From: Prochloron sp.
GTDB lineage: Bacteria > Cyanobacteriota > Cyanobacteriia > Cyanobacteriales > Prochloraceae
Direction of reading: 5' to 3'
NCBI GenBank assembly: GCA_965198675.1
Contig: OZ240666.1
Coordinates: 146,806-210,805 of the forward strand
DNA length: 64,000 nucleotides
In this document: one piece after another, positions 6,774 through 59,462 of the stretch
Layout of the letters: each line of letters starts with the position of its first letter
Numbering within the stretch: position 1 is the first letter of the stretch
The notes under the pieces: generated by a model
Seen by the model: only the letters and a program-made list of their open reading frames with translations
What the model was told of the DNA's origin: nothing
Database searches by the model: none
Made by a program: the position numbers and the translations under genes

Positions 6774-6929
6774 AGTTACTTCCTTATCTTTTAACGAGTA
6801 AATATTATAGCCTACAGAGTTACCCTCTCTCATCTTCCTCTGCGCCCTCTGCGCCTCTGTGGTTCATCTTGTACAAATGATTTAGACCCACTATAATAAG
6901 GAGAACCGTCATGAAACAATCACAAATAT

Positions 6930-14673: not shown

Positions 14674-14915
14674 GACAGAATCTCTCCCATAAGTTCATCC
14701 ACTGATACTGGTGAGCATCGCCCCTCTGAAAAGTCTTGACGAGCTTCCCGAACCTCAGCAACTAATATTTGACGACTAAGTTGGGCTGTACGGCGATGCA
14801 AAATATTGAGCAAGGTTTCCTGCTCTTCTAAAGAGAGTTTATCAATCGCTTCTGTAGGATGCGTTACTCTTCTTAATTCTGTTTTGTTTCTACTACTAAC
14901 GATGGCTAACGCATC
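14670..14915 (-). pseudogene. Cognate antitoxin-like ORF with lost start
   Basis: The frame ...EAIDKLSLEEQETLLNILHRRTAQLSRQILVAEVREARQDFSEGRCSPVSVDELMGEILS* is open but has no ATG. Its 5' end is occupied by copies of the small GTAGGATGCGTTAGC repeat. Confidence 0.3.
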
Positions 14916-15004
14916 CTACGCTTCTCCAAAAAGCATTGTTGGCGTCATAAACTTAAATCCCTCCTATTACAATGTCTCTGGGGCATCCTGCTCATTGAGA
15001 GGTA

Positions 15005-15078
15005 TGGCTCAGGTCAGATTTGAACTGACGACCTTGGGCTTATGAGTCCCCTACTCTAACCAACTGAGCTACTGAGCC
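15005..15078 (-). tRNA. tRNA with CAU anticodon (elongator Met or Ile2)
   Basis: The reverse complement GGCTCAGTAGCTCAGTTGGTTAGAGTAGGGGACTCATAAGCCCAAGGTCGTCAGTTCAAATCTGACCTGAGCCA folds as a cloverleaf with a G1-C72 pair (not initiator-like). The anticodon stem has two non-Watson-Crick positions. Confidence 0.75.
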
Positions 15079-23323: not shown

Positions 23324-24572
23324 ATGTTGATCTACGAGATGAAACTGGAAGGAACTAAAGAACAGTACCCACCCCCCTTGCCCCCCTCCCGGGAGGGGGG
23401 TTGGGGGGTGGGTAGCTATTCGTACTGGGCGTTTTATTCGTAACAGTATCATCAGAGCGTGGATTGACAGAGAAGTGAAGAGTCGCAACTCAGCCTACAA
23501 ATATTGCAAGATTTTGGCAGATAATCCAGAGTTCCCTTGGGCAAAGCAGTTAAACTCGCAAGCAAGACAAGCCCACGCCGAAAGAACATGGGCTGCAATC
23601 GAGCGCTTCTTTTTAAACTGCAAGGCAAAAATTCAAGGAAAAAAGGGGTATCCAAAGTTTAAAAAGTATCAGGTCAGGGCGTCGGTGGAGTACAAAACTT
23701 CCGGTTGGAAACTGTCCGAAGATCGTAAGTATTTGACTTTTTCTGACAAGTTCCAAGCAGGTAAATTTAGACTTTGGGGTAGCCGTGACCTTCACTATTA
23801 TCAACTCAACCAGATTAAACGAGTGCGAGTAGTGAGGAGGCATGATGGCTATTACGCGCAATTTGTAATTAACCACTCCAGGAGGGAAACTAAGGAACTA
23901 TCCAACAAACAATCAGGGCTAGATGTTGGTTTAAACCATTTCTACACAGACTCCCATGGCGATACAGTCGATAATCCAAGGTTTTTAAGAAAAGGTGAAC
24001 GGCGTATTAAAAAGCTACAAAGACGTTTATCTCGAACTAAAAAGGGCAGTAGTAACCGCTCTAAAGCTAGGAATCGCTTAGGTAGAGCGCATCGATCGGT
24101 TTCCCGCAAACGTAACGATTGGGTATGTAAGTTGGCCCAGCGCGTCATACGGTCTAACGACTTAGTAGCGATTGAAAACCTAACAGTGCGTAATATGGTG
24201 AGAAACCACTGTTTAGCTAAATCTATTAACGATGCAGCTTGGTATAAATTCCGAGAATGGCTAGAGTATTTTGGGACCATTTATGGGGTGAAAGTGATTG
24301 CCATTGACCCCAAATATACTTCTCAAAACTGTTCTAATTGTGGGAAAAAGGTGACCAAAACATTGAGCACCAGAACTCACAATTGTCTTCATTGCGGTTA
24401 TATAGCTGATCGGGATGAGAACGCTGCCATCAATATCCTGTCTGCTGCATTGGAACAATTAAAAACTACCCTGGGGCACAGGGAAAGTAACGCCTCTGGA
24501 GAGACTCCCCTCTGCCTAGTAGTGGAAACACCGCTGAGTAAGGGAACTCGCAGAAAGAGGAAATCCTCATAG
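23324..24572 (+). pseudogene. tnpB: TnpB (IS605 OrfB) RNA-guided nuclease, N-terminus frameshifted by a 46-nt palindromic mini-insertion
   Basis: MLIYEMKLEGTKEQY (frame 2) is followed by 46 nt of C/G-run palindrome (23369-23414). The protein resumes as AIRTGRFIRNSIIRAWID... (frame 0). The C-terminal zinc finger and RuvC are present (CSNCGKKV...HNCLHCGYIADRDENAAINIL). Confidence 0.75.
23369..23414. repeat. C/G-run palindromic mini-element (CCCACCCCCC..CCCTCCCGGGAGGGGGG..GGGGGGTGGG)
   Basis: It is a near-perfect palindrome. Related copies lie at 58602-58643, about 59196-59245, about 12636-12665, about 31262-31310 and about 39222-39275. Confidence 0.7.
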
Positions 24573-35651: not shown

Positions 35652-36970
35652 ATGACCAAAGAACTGCACAAAGAGAACTTTAATAGGAATCAGATAGCTC
35701 AGTTAGTTAAAATGACGGAGGAGGAATGGAGGGAAACTCTCCGGTCTTTGTGTGACAACGGTGAGTTTGATAAAATGTGGCAGTTAGCTCAAAAAGTACC
35801 TCCTGTCTGGAGTAGGGAGCTATTACAAGAGTTGGGTAAAGTAAAATGGTCTCCCTCCTGGGAAGGGGAAAGAGAAGTTTTTCAGAAGTTGTTGTCTTTA
35901 GCAGAGAATTGTGTTGAGGAAGTACCGCTGGGGGGACTGGTAAGCTGTAAGAAGGTATTGAGAGGACATTCCAATTGGGTCAGCTGTTTAGCTATCAGCC
36001 CGGATGGTAAGATTCTTGCTAGTGGTGGGAGTGGGGACGATACCGTGCGATTGTGGGGATTACCAGATGGTAAGCACTTGTGTACTCTTGAAGGACATTC
36101 CAAATCGGTCTGGAGTTTAGCAATCAGCCCGGATGGTAAGATTCTAGCTAGTGGGAGTAGGGACAAAACCGTGCGATTGTGGGGATTACCAGATGGTAAG
36201 CACTTGCGCACTCTGAAAGGACATTCCAGAAATGTCCGTAGTTTAGCCTTCAGCCCGGATGGTAAGATTCTTGCTAGTGGGAGTGAGGACAAAATCGTGC
36301 GGTTGTGGCGATTACCAGATGGTAAGCACTTGCGCACTAAAGGACATTCCCATTGGGTCTATAGTTTAGCTATCAGCCCCGATGGTAAGATTCTCGCTAG
36401 TGGGTGTGGGGACAAAACCGTGCTGTTGTGGCGATTACCAGATGGCAAGCACTTGCGCACTCTTAAAGGACATTTCGATTTGGTCTATAGTTTAGCTATC
36501 AGCCAGGATGGTAAGATTCTAGCTAGTGGGAGTAAGGACAAAACCGTGCTGTCGGGATTACCAGATGGTAAGCACTTGTGTACTCTTGAAGGACATTCCT
36601 CTACGGTCGAATGTTTAGCTATCAGCCCGGATGGGAAGATTCTAGCTAGTGGGAGTGAAGACGAAACCGTGCGGTTGTGGGGATTACCAGATGGTAAGCA
36701 CTTGTGTACTCTTAAAGGACATTCCGGTTACGTCTATAGTTTAGCCATCAGCCCCGATGGTAAGATTCTCGCTAGTGCGAGTAAGGACAAAACCGTGCGG
36801 TTGTAGACATCAGAGTTACCTCGTGTCACTGCTTTACCCCTAGAGCAACTGACTCCAGAAGATATAAAGTGGGTGGAGGGAGCATTGGAAAATAAAAATA
36901 TTACAGAAGATGAGCGTCATTGGTTAGAATTTACCTTAGAATTAATACGGTGGGAGCAACGATTCGATTC
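35652..36970 (+). pseudogene. WD40-repeat protein, paralog 1 (premature TAG, small in-frame deletions, 3' end truncated)
   Basis: It has the same 110-aa N-terminal domain as 37812..39215. The repeats read GHS..V.SLAISPDGKILASGS.DKTVRLWGLPDGKHL. A TAG at 36804-36806 replaces the Trp of VRLW. Homology continues (TSELPRVTALPLEQLTPEDIKWV...) until it is cut by an inverted Rpn fragment at about 36970. Confidence 0.7.
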
Positions 36971-37811: not shown

Positions 37812-39215
37812 ATGACCAAAGAACTGCACAAAGAGAACTTTAATCGGAATCAGATAGAGCGATTGGTAAAAATGACGGAGGAGGAATGGAGGGAAACTCT
37901 CCTATCTTTGTGTGATAACTGTGAGTTTGATAAAATGTGGCAGTTAGCTCAAAAAGCACCTCCTGTCTGGAGTAGGGAGCTATTACAAGAGTTGGGTCAA
38001 GTAAAATGGTCTCCCTCCTGGGAAGGGGAAAGAGAGGTTTTTCAGAAGTTGCTGTGGTTAGCAGAGAATTGTGTTGAAGAAGTGCCTAAGTTGGGCGGTT
38101 TAGTAAGCTGTCAGAAGGTATTGAAAGGGCATTCCAATAGTGTCTCTAGTTTAGCAATCAGCCCCGATGTTAAGATTTTTGCTACTAGTGGTAGGAATTT
38201 GGACTCCACCGTGCGATTGTGGGGATTACCAGATGGTCAGCATTTGCGCACTCTGAGAGGATATTCCGTTTCCGCCTATAGTTTAGCAATCAGCCCGGAT
38301 GGTAAGATTTTAGCTAGTGGGAATTATAACGATACCGTGCGGTTGTGGCGATTACCAGATGGTCAGCGCTTGCGCACTCTTAAAGGACATTCCGATACGG
38401 TCACTATTTTAGCAATCAGCCCGGATAGTAAGATTCTTGCTAGTGGGGGAGGTGTTGACAAAACCGTGCGGTTGTGGCGATTACCAGATGGTAAGCACTT
38501 GCGCACTCTTAAAGGACATTCCTATGGGGTCAATTTTTTAGCCTTCAGCCCGGATGGTAAGATTCTTGCTAGTGGGGGGGAAAATATCGTGCGATTGTGG
38601 CAATTACCAGATGGTAAGCACTTGTGCACTCTTACAGAACATTCCCATTTGGTCTATAGTTTAGCTATCAGCCCCGATGGTAAGATTCTTGCTAGTGGGA
38701 GTAGGGACAAAACCGTGCGGTTGTGGCGATTACCAGATGGTAAGCACTTGCGCACTCTTAAAGGACATTCCTATGGGGTCAGTAGTTTAGCCTTCAGCCC
38801 GGATGGTAAAATTCTAGCTAGTGGGGGTGGGGACAGAACCGTGCGGTTATGGGGATTACCAGATGGAAAGCACTTGTGTACTCTTAAAGGACATTCCGAT
38901 TCTGTCTGGAGTTTAGCAATCAGCCCCGATGGGAAGATTCTTGTCAGCGGGAGTCGTCAGAACGGAACCCTGCGATTATGGACATCAGAGTTACCTCGTG
39001 TCACTGCTTTACCCCTAGAGCAACTGACTCCAGAAGATATAAAGTGGGTGCAGGGAGCATTAGAAAACAAAAACATTACGGAAGATGAGCGTCATTGGTT
39101 AGAATTCATCTTAGAATTAATACGGTGGGAGCAACGATTCGATATTGAAATTGAGATTGATGATCCAGAATCCAGAGAAAATCCGGTCGAGTTTGATATT
39201 GAAATAGAAGGATAA
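37812..39215 (+). CDS. WD40-repeat protein, paralog 2 (intact)
   Basis: It starts MTKELHKENFNRNQIERLVKMTEEEWRETL. It has about 8 WD40 blades and a C-terminal acidic extension (RFDIEIEIDDPESRENPVEFDIEIEG). Confidence 0.75.
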   Translation: MTKELHKENFNRNQIERLVKMTEEEWRETLLSLCDNCEFDKMWQLAQKAPPVWSRELLQELGQVKWSPSWEGEREVFQKLLWLAENCVEEVPKLGGLVSCQKVLKGHSNSVSSLAISPDVKIFATSGRNLDSTVRLWGLPDGQHLRTLRGYSVSAYSLAISPDGKILASGNYNDTVRLWRLPDGQRLRTLKGHSDTVTILAISPDSKILASGGGVDKTVRLWRLPDGKHLRTLKGHSYGVNFLAFSPDGKILASGGENIVRLWQLPDGKHLCTLTEHSHLVYSLAISPDGKILASGSRDKTVRLWRLPDGKHLRTLKGHSYGVSSLAFSPDGKILASGGGDRTVRLWGLPDGKHLCTLKGHSDSVWSLAISPDGKILVSGSRQNGTLRLWTSELPRVTALPLEQLTPEDIKWVQGALENKNITEDERHWLEFILELIRWEQRFDIEIEIDDPESRENPVEFDIEIEG

Positions 39216-42261: not shown

Positions 42262-42322
42262 AATCTCTCTCCACCTCTCTGTGCCTCTGCGCCTCTGCGT
42301 GAAACCCAAAAATAAATTTAAA

Positions 42323-42529
42323 ATGGAACTACAAGAAATCGATGTATTTGTGGAAAAAGACGGTAAAGTCCGCCTTGAAGTGCGGGGAGTCAAAGGAACA
42401 TCTTGCTTAGATTTAACTCAAGACTTAGAAGCTATCTTAGGAGGGGAAATTGCAGCAAGGGAAATGACTCCAGAAGCTGAGGAAACAGCAGCAGTAATCC
42501 CCGTACAGTTAACCAGTTACCAGGGTTAA
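42323..42529 (+). CDS. DUF2997-like small protein
   Basis: MELQEIDVFVEKDGKVRLEVRGVKGTSCLDLTQDLEAILGGEI matches the DUF2997 pattern as I remember it. This family usually sits next to DUF1257. Confidence 0.6.
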   Translation: MELQEIDVFVEKDGKVRLEVRGVKGTSCLDLTQDLEAILGGEIAAREMTPEAEETAAVIPVQLTSYQG

Positions 42530-43005
42530 AACCGATAATTGCGCTCCCCTACCCAAAGACTAACGGGGACTGCATTTCCTTTACTATCCACCTTCACTTC
42601 TACCACAAATTGCCGTTCTTCCTTTTGTATCTCCCTGATCTGGGCATTAATCTCCTTACGCTTATTTTCTGGCATATAATAGGTTTCCAGCCCATAGTCA
42701 ATCCAGTCAGCACCCCCGGCTGAAGCACGGTTGCTCTCATGCCTCCAGCTTCAGGTAGCTGACCAGCCGTAGGATGCGTTACGCCATAGCTGTCAGCTTT
42801 AAACACTTCTCCAGACGTGTGCTAACGCATCCTACTTAACTGACTACGTTTTCCTTCGTCACGACACCTTCAGGTGCTTTCCAGCCTGTCGCTCTGTCGC
42901 TAATCATTAAACAGCCTTAGTAGGGGTAAAGCAGTGTGGTTGGCCCAACAAGCTTAGAAAACATTGGCAAGGAACACATTACACATCTGTAGACGAGACG
43001 CAACC

Positions 43006-43921
43006 ATGTCTAACTACGTTTTGGTAATTGATACCCATAAAAAGCCGTTAAATCCCTGCACACCAGGGATGGCCCGCTCTCTCCTGAAAGCGGGTAAAGC
43101 AGCGGTCTTCAGACGGTATCCCTTTACCATCATCCTCAAGAAAGCGGTTTGGGATACTCCAGAACCCTGCCAACTCAAGTTGGACCCTGGCTCCAAAACG
43201 ACTGGGATTACCATCTTGCAAGGGAATCAAGTCATCTGGGGGGCAGAATTGACCCATCGGGGGCAACAAATCAAAATGGAAGCTCACAGAGACACAGAGG
43301 CGCAGAGGGATCAGTCATATCTCTTTGCAGCTATAACGCTTGTTTATACGTTCTCCGTGCCTCCGCGCCTCTGCGCGAAACGATTCGGGAAAGCCTGACC
43401 TACTAGCCAAAATCAAGCGACAAGCCAAAGCCCCTCTGAAGGATGTGGCAGCAGTTAATACCACCCGTTGGAGGTTATTAAACGCCCTTAAGCAAACGGG
43501 CCTAACTGTTACCACAGGCACGGGAGGACAGACCAAATTTAACCGTTCCCAACAGGGGGTGGCTAAAGCTCACTGGCTGGATGCAGCTTGTGTTGGGAAG
43601 ATATTAACTCTGGAGTTTTGCACTTCCAAACCATTACTGATTAAAGCAACGGGGCACAGGTGCAGGCAAATGTGTGGCACCGATAAGTATGGCTTCCCAA
43701 AACGACATCGTTCACGGATGCAAGTTCACAAAGGCTTCAGAACAGGAGACATGGTTAAAGCGGTTGTTACGGCTGGCAAGAAAATAGGCACCTATGTGGG
43801 ACGGGTTCTATGTCGTGCATCCGGCAGTTTTGATATTGCCACTCAAAGTGGCAGAGTGACGGGTATTAGCCACAAGTATTGCCAGCCAATTCACAAAAAG
43901 GATGGATACGCCTATGCATGA
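43006..43921 (+). pseudogene. iscB: IscB-like (RRXRR/PLMP-domain) OMEGA nuclease relic with internal deletion
   Basis: N-terminal part: MSNYVLVIDTHKKPLNPCTPGMARSLLKAGKAAVFRRYPFTIILK (PLMP domain), LKLDPGSKTTGITIL (RuvC-I), AELTHRGQQIK. C-terminal part in another frame: LLAKIKRQAKAPLKDVAAVNTTRWRLL...KAHWLDAACVG (RuvC-III) plus GFRTGDMV...GRVLCRASGSFDI...KKDGYAYA. The bridge helix, RuvC-II and HNH are replaced by 118 bp of repeat (43276-43393). Confidence 0.7.
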
Positions 43922-43928
43922 CAGATTG

Positions 43929-43970
43929 ACGGCGCCCGGCATTGATTAATGGCGGGCGCCGTTCGTTTTT
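43929..43970 (+). terminator. Rho-independent terminator after the IscB relic
   Basis: A 10-bp GC-rich stem ACGGCGCCCG / CGGGCGCCGT with a 14-nt loop, followed by TCGTTTTT. Confidence 0.6.
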
Positions 43971-44201
43971 CCTCCCCGCTCGCGCATAGGCGTTGCTCTC
44001 CAAACGTATCGGATATTTTCGTGAGAATTGTACTCTCCCTGCAAATTACCGGCAATCCTGACTGGTGAATTGTGGATTCATAGAAACCAGCAGCAATACT
44101 ACCTTTAATTCTCTCGACCAAACCTGCCAATTAGCTGCCACAAAGGTAATTACTGCCAAACCCACTAAAATCATGATAAATAGGAATCTCTTAACAAGAA
44201 A

Positions 44202-45317
44202 ATGTTTGATTGTATTATTATCGGTTCCGGACCCGCTGGGGGTAGCGCTGCTTATCACTTAGCCAAACGAGGACGTTCCGTGTTAATCTTAGAAAAAGCC
44301 TCCTTACCCCGTTATAAACCCTGTGGGGGTGGAGTATCTCCCCTGGTTCAATCCTGGTTTGACTTTGACTTTACTCCCGCTATTTCTTGCAAAACCACCA
44401 CTAATTGCTATACTTGGAATAAGTCAGACCAGGTAGAAGTAACAATTGAGAATCAAGAGCCAATTTGGATGGTACGACGGGATATATTTGACTACTTTTT
44501 AGTTAAGCAAGCCCTAAAACAAGGAGCAGAACTGCGAGAGAATACCAAAGCGACGGCGATTGCCTTTCAGGGAGATAGTTGGGAAGTAATCACCACCTCA
44601 GAACCAGTCACAGGGCGCTACTTAATTGCAGCCGATGGAGCTAAAGGTATCATGGCTAAATTATTGGGCTTCAAAAAGCGCAAAACTCGTCTCGCAGGTG
44701 CTCTGGAAGTAGAAGTCCCCATACCCAAACAAGAAGATCGTCGAGTTTATTTTGAATTTGGCATGGTAAAAGGAGGCTATATCTGGAACTTTCCCAAAGC
44801 AGACGGCTATTCCATCGGTGTGGGTACCTTTCGGGGTGCCCAAAGACAAGACTTTAAAGGCATTTTGACAGAGTATAGCAAGATGTTTGACGTGGATATT
44901 AACACGGGTAAACACTGTGGTCATCCTGTCTCTCTTTGGGACGGCAATCAAAGGCTCCATACCGAACATGCCCTGTTAGCAGGGGAAGCTGCTTCCGTGG
45001 TGGATCCCTTTACCGCTGAGGGCATTCGTCCTTCTATTTTTAGCGGTATGAAAGCAGCAGAAGCAATAGATATGGCGATAGCAGGGGATATTAATGCCCT
45101 GACAGGATATACTGAAACCATGAGCCAAGAATGGGGTAGTGAAATGATATGGGCAAAGCGTCTTGCCCAGTTATTTTACCGCTTTCCCCGAGTGGGTTAT
45201 GAAATGGGAGTGAAACGTCCTTCTGCTACTACAACCATGGCCAAAATTTTAGCTGGTAAATTGCGTTACTCTGATGTTGCTCATAGGGGTATTCAACGTT
45301 TCACACAAAGACACTGA
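44202..45317 (+). CDS. Geranylgeranyl reductase-family FAD-dependent oxidoreductase
   Basis: MFDCIIIGSGPAGGSAAYHLAKRGRSVLILEK is a dinucleotide-binding motif. LIAADGAKG and GEAASVVDPFTAEGI motifs are also present. Confidence 0.75.
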   Translation: MFDCIIIGSGPAGGSAAYHLAKRGRSVLILEKASLPRYKPCGGGVSPLVQSWFDFDFTPAISCKTTTNCYTWNKSDQVEVTIENQEPIWMVRRDIFDYFLVKQALKQGAELRENTKATAIAFQGDSWEVITTSEPVTGRYLIAADGAKGIMAKLLGFKKRKTRLAGALEVEVPIPKQEDRRVYFEFGMVKGGYIWNFPKADGYSIGVGTFRGAQRQDFKGILTEYSKMFDVDINTGKHCGHPVSLWDGNQRLHTEHALLAGEAASVVDPFTAEGIRPSIFSGMKAAEAIDMAIAGDINALTGYTETMSQEWGSEMIWAKRLAQLFYRFPRVGYEMGVKRPSATTTMAKILAGKLRYSDVAHRGIQRFTQRH

Positions 45318-45491: not shown

Positions 45492-45938
45492 CTACTTTTC
45501 TCTCCTCTCTGGGTCTCTGGGGTTTATTTCACGAATAAATTCTAAAGGCAAACCATCCCTATCGGCAATAAATGCCACCTCATAAACCCTATCCCCTATC
45601 ATTTGTTGTCGCGGTTCTAATAATACTTGCAACGGTGACGATTCTTTAGCAAAACTAACTTTCAACTCATGTAACCAACTGGGTAAATCTTCAGTAACAT
45701 CGGTCAAATCAAAAGAAAGATGATAATAACCCACATAATGCTGGTCTCCAAAAGCATCCGGGGCTGGTTTTGGTGACCGTATTTCCATCAACTCAATCCT
45801 ACCCCCCAAACCCTCCAACCAGCAAGCGAGGGTATAACCAGTACTAAAGCGCTCTTTTACAGTAAATCCCAACCTTTCATAGAAGGCGATCGCCCGATGA
45901 ATATTAGCGGTGCGAATAGCAGCGTGGTGCATAATCAT
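45492..45938 (-). CDS. VOC (glyoxalase/bleomycin-resistance/dioxygenase) family protein
   Basis: HHAAIRTANIHRAIAFYERLGFTV...YYHLSFD is a typical VOC beta-alpha-beta-beta-beta module. Confidence 0.7.
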   Translation of the reverse strand: MIMHHAAIRTANIHRAIAFYERLGFTVKERFSTGYTLACWLEGLGGRIELMEIRSPKPAPDAFGDQHYVGYYHLSFDLTDVTEDLPSWLHELKVSFAKESSPLQVLLEPRQQMIGDRVYEVAFIADRDGLPLEFIREINPRDPERREK

Positions 45939-46441
45939 TCAAATAAACGATAATAAGTACAGTGTTGCGGCGTCCCCTTTTCTCTTTCCAAATGGAAGTT
46001 AATTACTTCCCAGCAAGGATCCTCTGGGGGTTCGGCACTAAATTCTACCGGTACGCCGTACAACTGGAGATTTTTGCTATTTGGATCTTCTTTCCAAGAA
46101 GAGTTTCCTTCCAAACAAGTACTGACCAACTTCCGATAGCGATAGGCAATAATTATCTTAGTGGCTCGATAGCCTTCAGTATAGAGCTGATCTAAGGCTT
46201 CGTGAATTTCAAAGCGAATTCCATCAGGGTGGGTATACTGTCGATACCATTTATCCTGCCAGAGACGCCAGTGTCTTTGAGACTGGAGATGAATTAGTTC
46301 TCCCATTTGGGGATCCGCTTCAAAAGCACCGTGACGAGGACACAAATAGCTATCTGTCAGGGTCAAAGCAGCAATTCTTTGGTGACAGTGAGGACAGTGA
46401 ATCTCCGGACCAAATATAGGGTATTGTAGAGCTAGATTCAT
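45935..46441 (-). CDS. Conserved hypothetical protein with N-terminal zinc-ribbon (CPHC...CPRHG)
   Basis: MNLALQYPIFGPEIHCPHCHQRIAALTLTDSYLCPRHGAF. There is a 4-nt ATGA-type overlap with the downstream VOC gene. Confidence 0.5.
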   Translation of the reverse strand: MNLALQYPIFGPEIHCPHCHQRIAALTLTDSYLCPRHGAFEADPQMGELIHLQSQRHWRLWQDKWYRQYTHPDGIRFEIHEALDQLYTEGYRATKIIIAYRYRKLVSTCLEGNSSWKEDPNSKNLQLYGVPVEFSAEPPEDPCWEVINFHLEREKGTPQHCTYYRLFE

Positions 46442-46478
46442 CTTTAACTTACCGTGAGCCAGCAATTCTATTATAGAT

Positions 46479-47006
46479 ATGGTAACTTCACCAACTAAAT
46501 ATTGGCAGCCTCCCGATTGCTCTCAAGCTGCTTTTATAGCTCCTAATGCAGTGGTTATGGGTCATGTCACCCTCAGCCCAGGGGTGAGTGTGTGGTACGG
46601 TGCTGTGGTGCGGGGAGATATAGAACGGATTGAAATTGGTGCTAGCACTAATATCCAAGATGGATCAATTTTGCACGGGGATCCCGGTGTGCCTACTATT
46701 TTAGAAGATTTCGTTACCGTCGGCCATCGCGCTGTGATTCATTCTGCTTATGTTGAAAGGGGTTGTTTAATCGGCATTGGGGCAGTAGTCTTGAATGGAG
46801 TGCGGGTAGGTGCTGGTAGTATTATCGGTGCTGGGAGTGTTGTTACCAAAGACGTGGCCCCAAAATCCCTAGTGGTGGGGGTACCCGGTAAATCACTGCG
46901 AGAAATTAGCGACTCGGAAGTAGTAGAATTAATCGAACACGCTGAACGTTATCAAAAGTTAGCTCTCGTCCATGCTGGAAAAAGCACCGATTTAGGCTTT
47001 TCCTAA
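46479..47006 (+). CDS. Gamma-class carbonic anhydrase-family (hexapeptide repeat) protein
   Basis: Left-handed beta-helix hexapeptide repeats with His residues, e.g. IQDGSILHGDPG and VTVGHRAVIHSA. Confidence 0.75.
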   Translation: MVTSPTKYWQPPDCSQAAFIAPNAVVMGHVTLSPGVSVWYGAVVRGDIERIEIGASTNIQDGSILHGDPGVPTILEDFVTVGHRAVIHSAYVERGCLIGIGAVVLNGVRVGAGSIIGAGSVVTKDVAPKSLVVGVPGKSLREISDSEVVELIEHAERYQKLALVHAGKSTDLGFS

Positions 47007-48940: not shown

Positions 48941-49014
48941 CTTATCATAGCTCATATCTTCCTCCCTCTGCGCCCTCTGCGTCTCTGCGGTTAAATAAAA
49001 AAATACACTCTACC

Positions 49015-57418: not shown

Positions 57419-57512
57419 CGGTGTGTTCTTCACAGTCAAGTCGGGTAAGGTTCAGGAATCACTTCCCTCCCCTCCCCTAAGAACCGGACGTGACAGTTTC
57501 CTATCATCCGGC

Positions 57513-59462
57513 TCAAGCCTCACCCCGACAGTTGCCTGTCGGCCCTACTTGCTTGGATTTCTTGGAGTGTACCTGTTTATGACACGGGACGCTAACGCAG
57601 TTGCTTACGCAATTGTGTATGTGCATAAGGTTGTCAGTGTCGTCTGACCCCCCTTTCGCTACAGGCCGACACCGCGTTGGCCATTGCGAAGCTTTGCGAA
57701 GCAACCGCCTTTGGCGTCCCGCCTTTGGCGTCCCGCCTTTGGCGTCCCGCCCAAGGCGGGAGCGGTGTCGGTGTGGTGGGTTTCGATTTCTGAACCGCAG
57801 ATAATTGCTACGCAATTGTCTTTTCTGCCAGTATTCCTTCAATTCTGGATCGTCTGGGGAGTTAGTCCCCGTTACTTTGACATGTCTTATAAGAGGTTCC
57901 GATGTTATTTCGTATAGGTCGTGAGTTATCCCTCGGCCTTTACGGTCAGTTCCCTCATAGAAGAATTGCCATTCCTTTTTGCGACCTCCCTTTCGGGTGA
58001 TGATTCGGAAATATTTGTTCTTGACCCACTTTTTACTTTTGTTAGGGTGCCGTCTCTTTGCCCAACGCCAAAGGTACCACCATAGTCGGTAGCTAATGTG
58101 ACTAAAGGTTTCTTTGCTGCATACCCCTTTGTAGTAATTAGCAAAACCTCTGAGAAGCGGTTCTAGTTTTCGGGTAACTTGCTCTGGGGTTCTTGTCTTC
58201 ATGCTGTCGATGGTTTCACCGAGCTTCTTGCAGAATTCCACTACCTTTGACTTTTGAGGCTTGATGAGAAGTTTGTCCCTGGGGATTCCGTCTTCACCTT
58301 TAACCTTATACTGCCTCAGGTTAAACCCTAGGAAATCGAACCCGTCACTGATGTGGACTATCCTTGTCTTCTCCTCACTGAGATTGAGACCTATTTCTGA
58401 CAACCATTGATTTATCTGGATTTTCAATGCCTCCAAGGATTCCTTATCCTTTGCAGTGACGACAAAGTCGTCTGCATACCTGATGACGCCTACCTTTGGG
58501 TTGCATTTCTTGATGAATTTCTCTAATCCGTGGAGTCCGACATTGGCCAACAGCGGACTAATTACGCCACCCTGGGTCGTACCTGTTTTGGTCGGGTTGT
58601 ACCCACCCCTACCCCCTCCCAGGAGGGGGACTTTGGGGGTGGGTTCGACGAATCCAGCTTTTAACCATCCTCTGATTGAAGGGATGTACCCCATTCTGGT
58701 CAGGATAGATTCATGATCAATATTGTCAAAGAAGCCTTCAATATCAGCGTCCAGAACCCACTTATCGTATTTGCGCATCTGCCCGGTTTTGGTTTTGTGG
58801 TCGCCTCTTAGCCTTATGAAGCATTGTGCTATGGCGTCGTGGCAACTCCGTCCCGGTCTGAAACCATAGGAGTTGGCCTCAAATTCAGCTTCCCATTGGG
58901 GTTCCAGTGCATTTTTAACTATTGCCTGAGCGACTCTATCCCTCACGGGACGCCAAGGGCGGGACGCCAAGGGCGGGACGCCAAGGGCGGTTGCTTCGCA
59001 AAGCTTCGCAAAGCTTCGCAAAGGGATTCCGAGGGGCCGACAGGCAACTGTCGGCTTGCCGTTTGCCTTTGGAATATATATCCGTCTGGCGGGTGCTGCT
59101 GTTGGCATTTTCCATAGAGAGGCAAGTTTCACACGCTGTTCTGGGGTATTTATGACCTCCTTATCTATCCCCGATGTTTGCTTTCCGGTATAACCCCCCC
59201 CCTTAATCCCGGGGGGGAGATGACAAGGGGGGTAAGGGGGGATTTTCCGCTGTGTGATTTGTCTGATGCTCAGGAGTAGATTCGAGCGGCACCTTTTCAT
59301 TAGTTTCTGCAATCGCAGTACTTGCTTATGCAGTCCAAGCTTTTGAGCACGAAAGATTCGATTTCTTAGATTCCTGACGATTTTCCTGGTTTGACGCCAT
59401 TTGACATCGCCCCATTCAGATAATTGTCCCTCCGGTCCATTTTCCAGAATCGCTTCTGTCAT
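57513..59462 (-). CDS. Group II intron reverse transcriptase/maturase with HNH-like tail
   Basis: RT motifs are present (RRIYIPKANGK, GFRPGRSCHDA, VLDADIEGFFDNIDH, TTQGGVISPLLANV, IRYADDFVVTA). There is a maturase X region and a C-terminal GGSDDTDNLMHIH..CHKQVH. The ORF is open over 649 aa despite four repeat insertions. Confidence 0.8.
   Translation of the reverse strand: MTEAILENGPEGQLSEWGDVKWRQTRKIVRNLRNRIFRAQKLGLHKQVLRLQKLMKRCRSNLLLSIRQITQRKIPPYPPCHLPPGIKGGGYTGKQTSGIDKEVINTPEQRVKLASLWKMPTAAPARRIYIPKANGKPTVACRPLGIPLRSFAKLCEATALGVPPLASRPWRPVRDRVAQAIVKNALEPQWEAEFEANSYGFRPGRSCHDAIAQCFIRLRGDHKTKTGQMRKYDKWVLDADIEGFFDNIDHESILTRMGYIPSIRGWLKAGFVEPTPKVPLLGGGRGGYNPTKTGTTQGGVISPLLANVGLHGLEKFIKKCNPKVGVIRYADDFVVTAKDKESLEALKIQINQWLSEIGLNLSEEKTRIVHISDGFDFLGFNLRQYKVKGEDGIPRDKLLIKPQKSKVVEFCKKLGETIDSMKTRTPEQVTRKLEPLLRGFANYYKGVCSKETFSHISYRLWWYLWRWAKRRHPNKSKKWVKNKYFRIITRKGGRKKEWQFFYEGTDRKGRGITHDLYEITSEPLIRHVKVTGTNSPDDPELKEYWQKRQLRSNYLRFRNRNPPHRHRSRLGRDAKGGTPKAGRQRRLLRKASQWPTRCRPVAKGGSDDTDNLMHIHNCVSNCVSVPCHKQVHSKKSKQVGPTGNCRGEA
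57666..57771. repeat. Composite mini-element: CCGACACCGC...GCGGTGTCGG inverted ends enclosing GCGAAGCTTTGC-type and 14-nt GCCTTTGGCGTCCC tandem sub-repeats
   Basis: 106 bp with three 14-nt units. It lies inside the RT ORF. Confidence 0.8.
58602..58643. repeat. C/G-run palindromic mini-element, 42-nt in-frame copy inside the RT ORF
   Basis: CCCACCCCTACCCCCTCCCAGGAGGGGGACTTTGGGGGTGGG. It is homologous to 23369-23414. Confidence 0.7.
58947..59024. repeat. (GGGACGCCAAGGGC)x3 plus (TTCGCAAAGC)x3 array, inverted orientation, inside the RT ORF
   Basis: Read directly. It is followed by the palindrome GCCGACAGGCAACTGTCGGC (59035-59054), also present at about 57524-57543. Confidence 0.8.

Follow-up and report, generated by a model that had tools for sequence, protein, structure and literature searches.

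Remnants of an IscB/omega-RNA insertion sequence in a Prochloron sp. genome, compared with a full-length copy at the same site in a sister strain

The window analyzed here is a 64,000-nt stretch of contig OZ240666.1 from Prochloron sp. (assembly GCA_965198675.1, positions 146,806 to 210,805), and the locus under study is a broken iscB gene with its upstream omega RNA. IscB is an RNA-guided nuclease that is ancestral to Cas9. We found that one IscB/omega-RNA insertion sequence spans window positions 42706-44020, and we are confident in reading it as a defunct element of the non-autonomous IS200/IS605 type that carries a HEARO omega RNA and iscB; nothing was found that contradicted the IscB/omega-RNA identification. 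An earlier note, made from the letters of this DNA alone, had described the locus as an IscB relic with its catalytic middle replaced by a hairpin repeat. The comparison relied mainly on two other copies. The sister-strain locus (L010) lies on a 4,718,108-bp ENA contig and was reached through P0123, a 55-aa protein that shares a 90% cluster with the N-terminal open reading frame (ORF) of the window. The intact relative (L001) lies on a 71-kb metagenome contig and holds P0001, the best match to the C-terminal half. The features of the locus, by window position, are as follows; MITE denotes a miniature inverted-repeat transposable element.

42526-42675, minus strand: remnant of the host GDYXXLXY-domain gene, C-terminal 49 codons (Pfam PF14345, E 4e-06; 95% identical to L005:5145-5405).
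42690-42705, plus strand: 16-nt flank adjoining the omega-RNA scaffold, putative guide source (from the HEARO start at 42706, the element start GTCAGCACC common to three copies, and the model of Meers et al.).
42706-42982, plus strand: omega RNA, Rfam HEARO (RF02033), covering the full model but damaged (108.4 bits, E 8e-23, model positions 1-211).
42769-42835, no strand assigned: 67-bp inverted-repeat hairpin with 13-bp arms, GTAGGATGCGTTA/TAACGCATCCTAC, absent from the sister, L001 and L008.
43006-43278, plus strand: IscB codons 1-91, containing the PLMP domain and, at 43183-43185, the catalytic Asp60 (LDPGS) of RuvC-I (PF14239 and NF040563; 90% identical to the L001 IscB).
43279-43378, no strand assigned: MITE-like repeat of 100 bp with inverted CTCTGCG-type heptamer blocks (copies elsewhere; absent from the sister).
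43379-43384, plus strand: AACGAT, from IscB codons 91-92, now on the right side of the repeat (comparison with the sister).
43385-43921, plus strand: IscB codons 246-423 and stop, RuvC-III (His308 at 43571-43573, Asp311 at 43580-43582) and C-terminal domain (NF040563; 84% identical to P0001/L001).
43929-43970, plus strand: hairpin ACGGCGCCCG...CGGGCGCCGT followed by a T-run, terminator-like (z = -4.25; alignment).
43971-44020, plus strand: iscB-distal element end, in which the second subterminal hairpin lacks its 3' arm both here and in the sister (comparison with L001, L008 and L009).
44021-44024, plus strand: GTGA bordering the element, a candidate for both transposon-adjacent motif and target site (the same 4 nt in the window, L001 and L008).
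44046-44258, minus strand: fragment of the host DUF2157 gene (Pfam PF09925, E 4e-09; alignment to L005 and L007).

The iscB coding remnants occupy two ORFs in different frames (42964-43398 and 43340-43921), as the earlier note had recognized. The N-terminal half, read from the ATG at 43006, matched Pfam RRXRR (PF14239) over profile positions 1-87 of 174 with an E-value of 1.7e-29, and the NCBIfam profile NF040563, 'RNA-guided endonuclease IscB', over positions 1-89 of 314 with an E-value of 4.5e-30; these matches bear out the PLMP domain and RuvC-I that had been placed at 43006-43275. The C-terminal half matched the same NCBIfam profile over positions 247-314 (E 3e-20) and retained the RuvC-III motif AHWLDAA, so that the profile search suggested earlier recovered IscB on both sides of the break. 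The RuvC-III motif and C-terminal domain previously read from the letters are indeed present, although IscB resumes at 43385 and not at 43394. Positions 90-246 of NF040563 are unrepresented in the window, and the two halves scored 104.9 and 72.6 bits, below the equivalog cut-off of 175 bits; the sister fragment scored 394 bits and the L001 protein 474 bits. Neither window half matched an HNH domain in Pfam. Solved structures gave no match at E 0.01 when searched with the sequence of the C-terminal half, and the identity of this half is established by the NCBIfam profile match and the intact relatives; by its position in the protein, we take the C-terminal domain to be the counterpart of the TAM-interacting domain (TAM, transposon-adjacent motif) of OgeuIscB. 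The N-terminal ORF closes 39 codons into repeat-derived sequence, and the C-terminal part stands in another frame and is not preceded by a bridge helix, RuvC-II Glu or HNH. Judged from its sequence, the window copy cannot encode a nuclease.

The L001 ORF is intact, with 423 codons from MSNYALVID... (L001:3512-4783), and its product matched the solved structures of OgeuIscB (7xht and 7utn, E ~1e-31) as well as IsrB (8dmb) over residues 7-163. When the window copy was compared with L001, the ratio of nonsynonymous to synonymous substitution rates (dN/dS) was 0.046 in the N-terminal half and 0.082 in the C-terminal half, at dS values of 0.8-1.1, and neither window half of IscB contained a stop codon. 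The low dN/dS and the lack of stops therefore point to strong constraint over nearly all of the history of the gene and to recent inactivation; iscB would have been under strong purifying selection for most of that time, with the damage being recent. The deposited gene call for the L001 ORF begins at the internal Met164, and none of the approximately 240 IscB homologs listed was full length, the longest having 303 aa; the gene calls of this clade look systematically truncated, or else most copies are broken. The intact IscB element of L001 is itself nested inside a TnpB gene (L001:2444-5263), an OMEGA system within an OMEGA system.

The sister-strain copy served as a reference for the state before the damage. 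The element occupies the same site in L010 and, outside two patches, differs from the window copy by 6 substitutions over ~1130 shared nt, with a single nucleotide difference over 43006-43278. Its ORF comprises 423 codons and contains RRSRR at 100, AQELVK at 153, VEHIVP at 208 and AHWLDAA at 307, which we take, from published IscB work and from the positional match to OgeuIscB, to include the RuvC-II Glu (AQELVK), HNH (VEHIVP) and RuvC-III (AHWLDAA); the HNH domain PF01844 is present in the sister ORF. The sister is not undamaged, having a nonsense change from CAA to TAA at codon 56 (Q56*; window position 43171). As read from the two sequences, this change inactivated the sister copy independently of the window copy. 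Between window positions 42600 and 44200, the two strains differ by ~0.5% in the element and its immediate flanks, and the host DNA beyond, to the left and to the right, shows a divergence of 3-6% per 200 nt. We considered homing or transfer of the element as the source of this low divergence and drew no such conclusion, as the nearby host segments at 45800-46900 are equally similar; the low divergence around the element may reflect a recombination mosaic.

Alignment with the sister resolved the break in the window gene into two separate events. A 459-bp deletion corresponds to L010:4277-4735 and removes exactly codons 93-245, which is in frame by itself and takes out the bridge helix RRxRR, the RuvC-II Glu and HNH. 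All of the corresponding sister motifs lie within the deleted codons, and the absence of these three parts, as it had been read from the window, is thereby upheld. The deletion junction, ACGAT followed directly by TCGGG, falls between 43384 and 43385; at the corresponding place, the sister reads ATCAAAAACGAT, then TTGGAG...CTTCCTA, then TCGGGAAAGCC. The 100-bp repeat interrupts the A-run at codons 90-91. It ends 6 nt before this junction and causes the frame change. The middle of the gene had been described as replaced by the repeat. A repeat does lie at the break, but the deletion and the insertion are distinct lesions. Likewise, the inverted CTCTGCG-type blocks of the filler are real, but the gap between the contiguous IscB parts (43278 to 43385) measures 106 bp, consisting of the 100-bp repeat and AACGAT, and not 118 bp.

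The 100-bp filler is a dispersed repeat with inverted heptamer blocks. Copies identical at 100 of 100 positions were found at intergenic sites in two assemblies of Candidatus Paraprochloron terpiosi (L003:2623-2722 and L004:366-465), and a copy with 97% identity (L002) occupies a site orthologous to that of L004; none of the copies in L002-L004 is near an IscB gene. In a collection of species representatives, the repeat pattern matched only Ca. Paraprochloron metagenome-assembled genomes. CTCTGCG-type blocks matched 7 times in the window, with 0.14 matches expected. Such heptamers also occur in short intergenic tandem runs at window positions 6837-6861, 42276-42303 and 48963-48989. The ends of the 100-bp repeat are imperfect inverted heptamer blocks, and the region folds no better than its shuffled versions (z = -0.77), for which reason the idea of the filler as a stable hairpin was dropped. 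No consistent target-site duplication was present in the flanks of the repeat copies examined.

The HEARO match lies directly upstream of the iscB ORF on the same strand, is the only one in the window and exceeds the gathering score of 83 bits; HEARO has been equated with the IscB omega RNA by Meers et al. (preprint 10.1101/2023.03.14.532601). The omega-RNA remains anticipated at 42840-43005 are upstream of the gene as expected; however, the covariance-model search that had been recommended returned a full-length RNA that starts 134 nt further upstream. The omega RNA retains its full extent despite the damage, and its score compares with 142.2 bits in the sister and 152 bits in L001. The inverted GTAGGATGCGTTA repeat noted previously was recovered, with its start at 42769 instead of 42770, and was found to lie within the omega RNA, where the 67-bp hairpin occupies the spot of a 12-nt hairpin tip in the HEARO model. 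The change was not a clean insertion: the hairpin half TCAGTCCTTCTCC of the sister is replaced in the window by the 67-bp inverted repeat and TTAACT, and downstream of the hairpin, CTAGG of the sister reads CCTTCG in the window, so that the altered patch runs to ~42865. Analysis with cmscan revealed a 71-nt insert and mispaired positions in comparison with the sister, and the patch disrupts 3-4 pairs of the long-range helix UUUUCUAGG/CUUAGAAAA, costing 34 bits of HEARO score relative to the sister. These changes suggest that the omega RNA is weakened. The GTAGGATGCGTTA arm gave 4 matches in the window against 0.07 expected, and a scan of the metagenome collection found the exact 13-bp arms at only 2 further loci. 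A second hairpin with GTAGGATGCGTTA...TAACGCATCCTAC arms and an unrelated loop of equal size lies at 14854-14919, bracketed by GCTTCT on both sides and ~85 nt from a tRNA gene (15005-15078).

The ends of the element were defined by aligning three copies with unrelated flanks, namely the window copy, L001 and L008, the last of which is a pseudogene. The start given above (window 42706) and the end ...ATTT(T/A)CGT (window 44020) are common to all three, and GTGA then follows in each. The window is syntenic with Ca. Paraprochloron terpiosi LD05 (CP073341, locus L005) at ~91-98% nucleotide identity; this organism has been described as a cyanobacterium living in symbiosis with the sponge Terpios hoshinota (PMC9298193). 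In the alignment, homology to LD05 breaks at 42705/42706 and picks up again at 44023. LD05 and a second sample (L007) both have an empty site, which reads ...CCCATAGTTAATCCA, GCGA, GAATTGTACTC... (AATCCA, GCGA, GAATTG at the center). Ends that are alike across unrelated flanks, together with the empty site in relatives, identify a discrete mobile unit. The insertion site lies inside the GDYXXLXY-domain gene, which overlaps a DUF2157 gene, and ~150 bp of host DNA that is present in LD05 is missing between the right side of the element and the DUF2157 fragment. No tnpA was found inside the element (42706-44020); the rest of the window and the genome were not searched for it.

By the IS200/IS605 convention, the omega-RNA side is the right end of the transposon (Meers et al., preprint 10.1101/2023.03.14.532601). 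With this orientation, positions 42690-42705 would have supplied the guide of the omega RNA, and GTGA, which reads TCAC on the other strand beside the left end, is a candidate transposon-adjacent motif. At the iscB-distal end, a terminator had been proposed after the gene, and the hairpin and T-run at 43929-43970 agree with this; relatives have a shorter hairpin at the same place. A second subterminal hairpin (hairpin B) has the form CCC(T/C)GCTCTAAAGAGAC(A/G)GGG in L001, L008 and L009, the last being a further locus of the sister genome. L001 and L008 read CCCTGCTCTAAAGAGACAGGG, and L009 reads CCCCGCTCTAAAGAGACGGGG, which is a compensatory pair change. In contrast, the window reads CCCCGCTCGCGCATAGGCGTTGCTC, and the window and the sister keep just the 5' arm of hairpin B. 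The element is thus probably immobile, and it would have been so already before the strain split if hairpin B, like the end structures of IS200/IS605 elements, is what TnpA recognizes. The possibility that the last 35 nt are a carried TnpB fragment (they read SKRISHLRDAGW in the TnpB frame of L001) was rejected, as L008 shares this stretch next to an unrelated flank, and the stretch belongs to the IscB element. The IscB element at L009 (L009:2745-6100) has a HEARO match of 120 bits and a frameshifted N-terminal ORF of 204 aa, and a resolvase with a TnpB-like gene, an IS607-type pair, lies between its IscB N-terminus and its distal end.

These observations can be arranged into a proposed history. 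In published IscB biology, intact copies would draw the guide of the omega RNA from the flank adjacent to the scaffold; the intact IscB would use this guide and a short motif at the opposite element end to cut the element-free allele, the cut would promote re-copying of the element, and the TnpA transposase would move the element in trans. Applied to this locus following Meers et al., the intact ancestor would have used the 16-nt flank as guide with a GTGA-type motif, cutting the empty allele and favoring its own retention. The element would have been inserted into the GDYXXLXY/DUF2157 gene pair before the source genome and the sister diverged from their common ancestor, and would then have decayed. 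One lesion, the loss of a subterminal hairpin at the iscB-distal end, would date from before the split because it is common to both strains. The 459-bp deletion, the 100-bp MITE-like insertion and the 67-bp hairpin patch in the omega RNA would have arisen in the window lineage only, and Q56* in the sister lineage only.

Three points qualify this account. The GTGA motif is based on three copies, and the empty sites have GCGA; immobility rests on one degenerate hairpin with an assumed role; and P0122, a 137-aa ORF on the source contig, bears the same tail of repeat and junction, which a simple insertion and deletion in place cannot explain. Its 38-aa tail, formed by the repeat and the ACGAT-TCGGG junction, is identical to that of the window ORF, and the N-terminus of P0122 differs at 6 of 90 residues, having the ancestral-like S49 and A69 as in L001, where the window and the sister have W49 and T69. 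The sister is without the lesions at this locus; therefore, shared descent fails to explain the tail of P0122. Gene conversion between paralogs may be the simplest idea for it, and the lesions specific to the window could have been copied in from older damaged paralogous IscB elements rather than made in place. That the omega-RNA change is a replacement patch is consistent with copying, but P0122 diverges straight after the junction, which leaves little homology on that side, and we regard the copying of these lesions as possible but doubtful. A more speculative extension would be a deletion hot spot at about codons 92-104 that repeatedly gives in-frame fusions of PLMP/RuvC-I to the C-terminal domain, with the lesions spread by gene conversion; if selected, the products could bind omega RNA without nuclease activity and would be to IscB what the TnpB-derived repressors are to TnpB. 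Eight of the ~240 IscB homologs are in-frame internal-deletion derivatives (P0050, P0106, P0131, P0136, P0194, P0202, P0216 and P0239), with left breakpoints at residues 99-104 in 5 of the 8, compared with 92 in the window, and right breakpoints at 241-408. The first residues of the bridge helix may be a hot spot for deletion, but we consider the whole scenario improbable.

An alternative in which the short protein has a function of its own, as a naturally HNH-less IscB relative (IsrB-like or 'mini-IscB'), draws on the same derivatives and on the exact reading frame of the 459-bp deletion when taken alone. The breakpoints of the eight derivatives are all different, the 100-bp repeat puts the halves in the window out of frame, and neither the bridge helix nor the RuvC-II Glu, both of which IsrB retains, is left. 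The earlier note had named naturally short, HNH-less intact relatives as the finding that would overturn it; instead, the sister has a full-length gene with the complete RRXRR and HNH middle at the same locus and with 99.5% identity, and the short-family explanation, refuted here at this locus, is extremely improbable. A dead protein could still leave a useful RNA, with the locus acting as an omega-RNA donor whose transcript an intact IscB paralog elsewhere in the genome takes up in trans. The full HEARO match above the gathering score would fit this, as would the identity to relatives, which is 91-95% in the omega-RNA parts against 80-85% in the coding parts; other IscB genes or gene fragments (P0060 and P0131) lie on the same 4,740,233-bp source contig, and the concept of use in trans has been set out for PATEs, derivatives with an omega RNA but no protein gene (Meers et al., preprint 10.1101/2023.03.14.532601). 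However, the patch removes a conserved hairpin and mispairs the long-range helix, with the loss of score described above, P0131 is one of the internal-deletion derivatives, and P0060 is just 66% identical, which makes cross-loading uncertain. We consider this role unlikely. A dead copy of a non-autonomous IscB/omega-RNA element thus remains our preferred explanation.

We also compared the locus with known systems. It shares with IscB/omega-RNA elements of the IS200/IS605 superfamily the upstream omega RNA on the same strand, the PLMP/RuvC-I and RuvC-III/C-terminal regions, the discrete ends, the empty site in relatives and the lack of an internal tnpA. It differs in the deletion of the bridge helix, RuvC-II and HNH, in the ORF split by the 100-bp repeat, in the hairpin patch of the omega RNA and in the loss of one subterminal hairpin. 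By sequence comparison, the locus descends from such an element and, as it stands, fails the catalytic criteria of the family. In published descriptions, the ORF of IsrB is continuous and retains the bridge helix and RuvC-II, with HNH naturally absent. The window copy resembles this nickase (PDB 8dmb) in having no HNH and in its PLMP/RuvC-I N-terminal region, whereas it lacks the bridge helix and RuvC-II, is divided between two frames and had an immediate ancestor with HNH. PATEs are IS200/IS605 derivatives that have no protein gene but may nevertheless encode omega RNAs (Meers et al., preprint 10.1101/2023.03.14.532601). Like them, the window copy is non-autonomous, has lost nuclease coding and has kept the omega-RNA end, but it still carries a coding remnant of ~800 bp and has one degenerate end hairpin. 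It resembles an early or intermediate stage of decay toward a protein-less PATE, and not a mobile derivative that has been streamlined. In being short, non-coding, inverted-repeat sequences at unrelated sites, the 100-bp repeat and the 67-bp hairpin are similar to cyanobacterial MITEs and small dispersed repeats; they differ in that neither could be placed in a named family, in that no clear target-site duplication was found and in that the 67-bp family keeps its 13-bp arms alone.

Additional features were observed elsewhere in the window. A TnpB gene at 23475-24572 (plus strand) encodes 365 aa with full matches to both Pfam TnpB domains, OrfB_IS605 (E 2e-26) and Cas12f1-like TNB (E 8e-24). 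Similarity to another TnpB begins ~60 nt upstream of its GTG start, and only the extreme N-terminus is in doubt. The earlier note had counted two decayed ancestors of CRISPR effectors in the window; the IscB is decayed, but this TnpB is not obviously so. A group II intron catalytic domain matched at 57440-57516 on the minus strand (62 bits against a gathering score of 40). Arrays of a 126-bp tandem repeat occupy 35963-36804 and 38147-38954, and the syntenic place in LD05 contains far fewer units; with a unit length equal to 42 codons, the arrays would suit a gene for a repeat protein, for example of the WD40 type.

The persistence or death of IscB elements in genomes is an active question. The locus reveals no new mechanism or new kind of system, and its decay is ordinary transposon decay in a known family. 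What it offers is a natural before-and-after pair, in which two strains within ~0.5% divergence carry the same insertion and have inactivated it differently. Three states can be compared, namely the empty site, a full-length copy with a nonsense codon, and a deleted copy invaded by a repeat, and this comparison yields the exact ends of the element, a candidate target motif and dated steps of decay.

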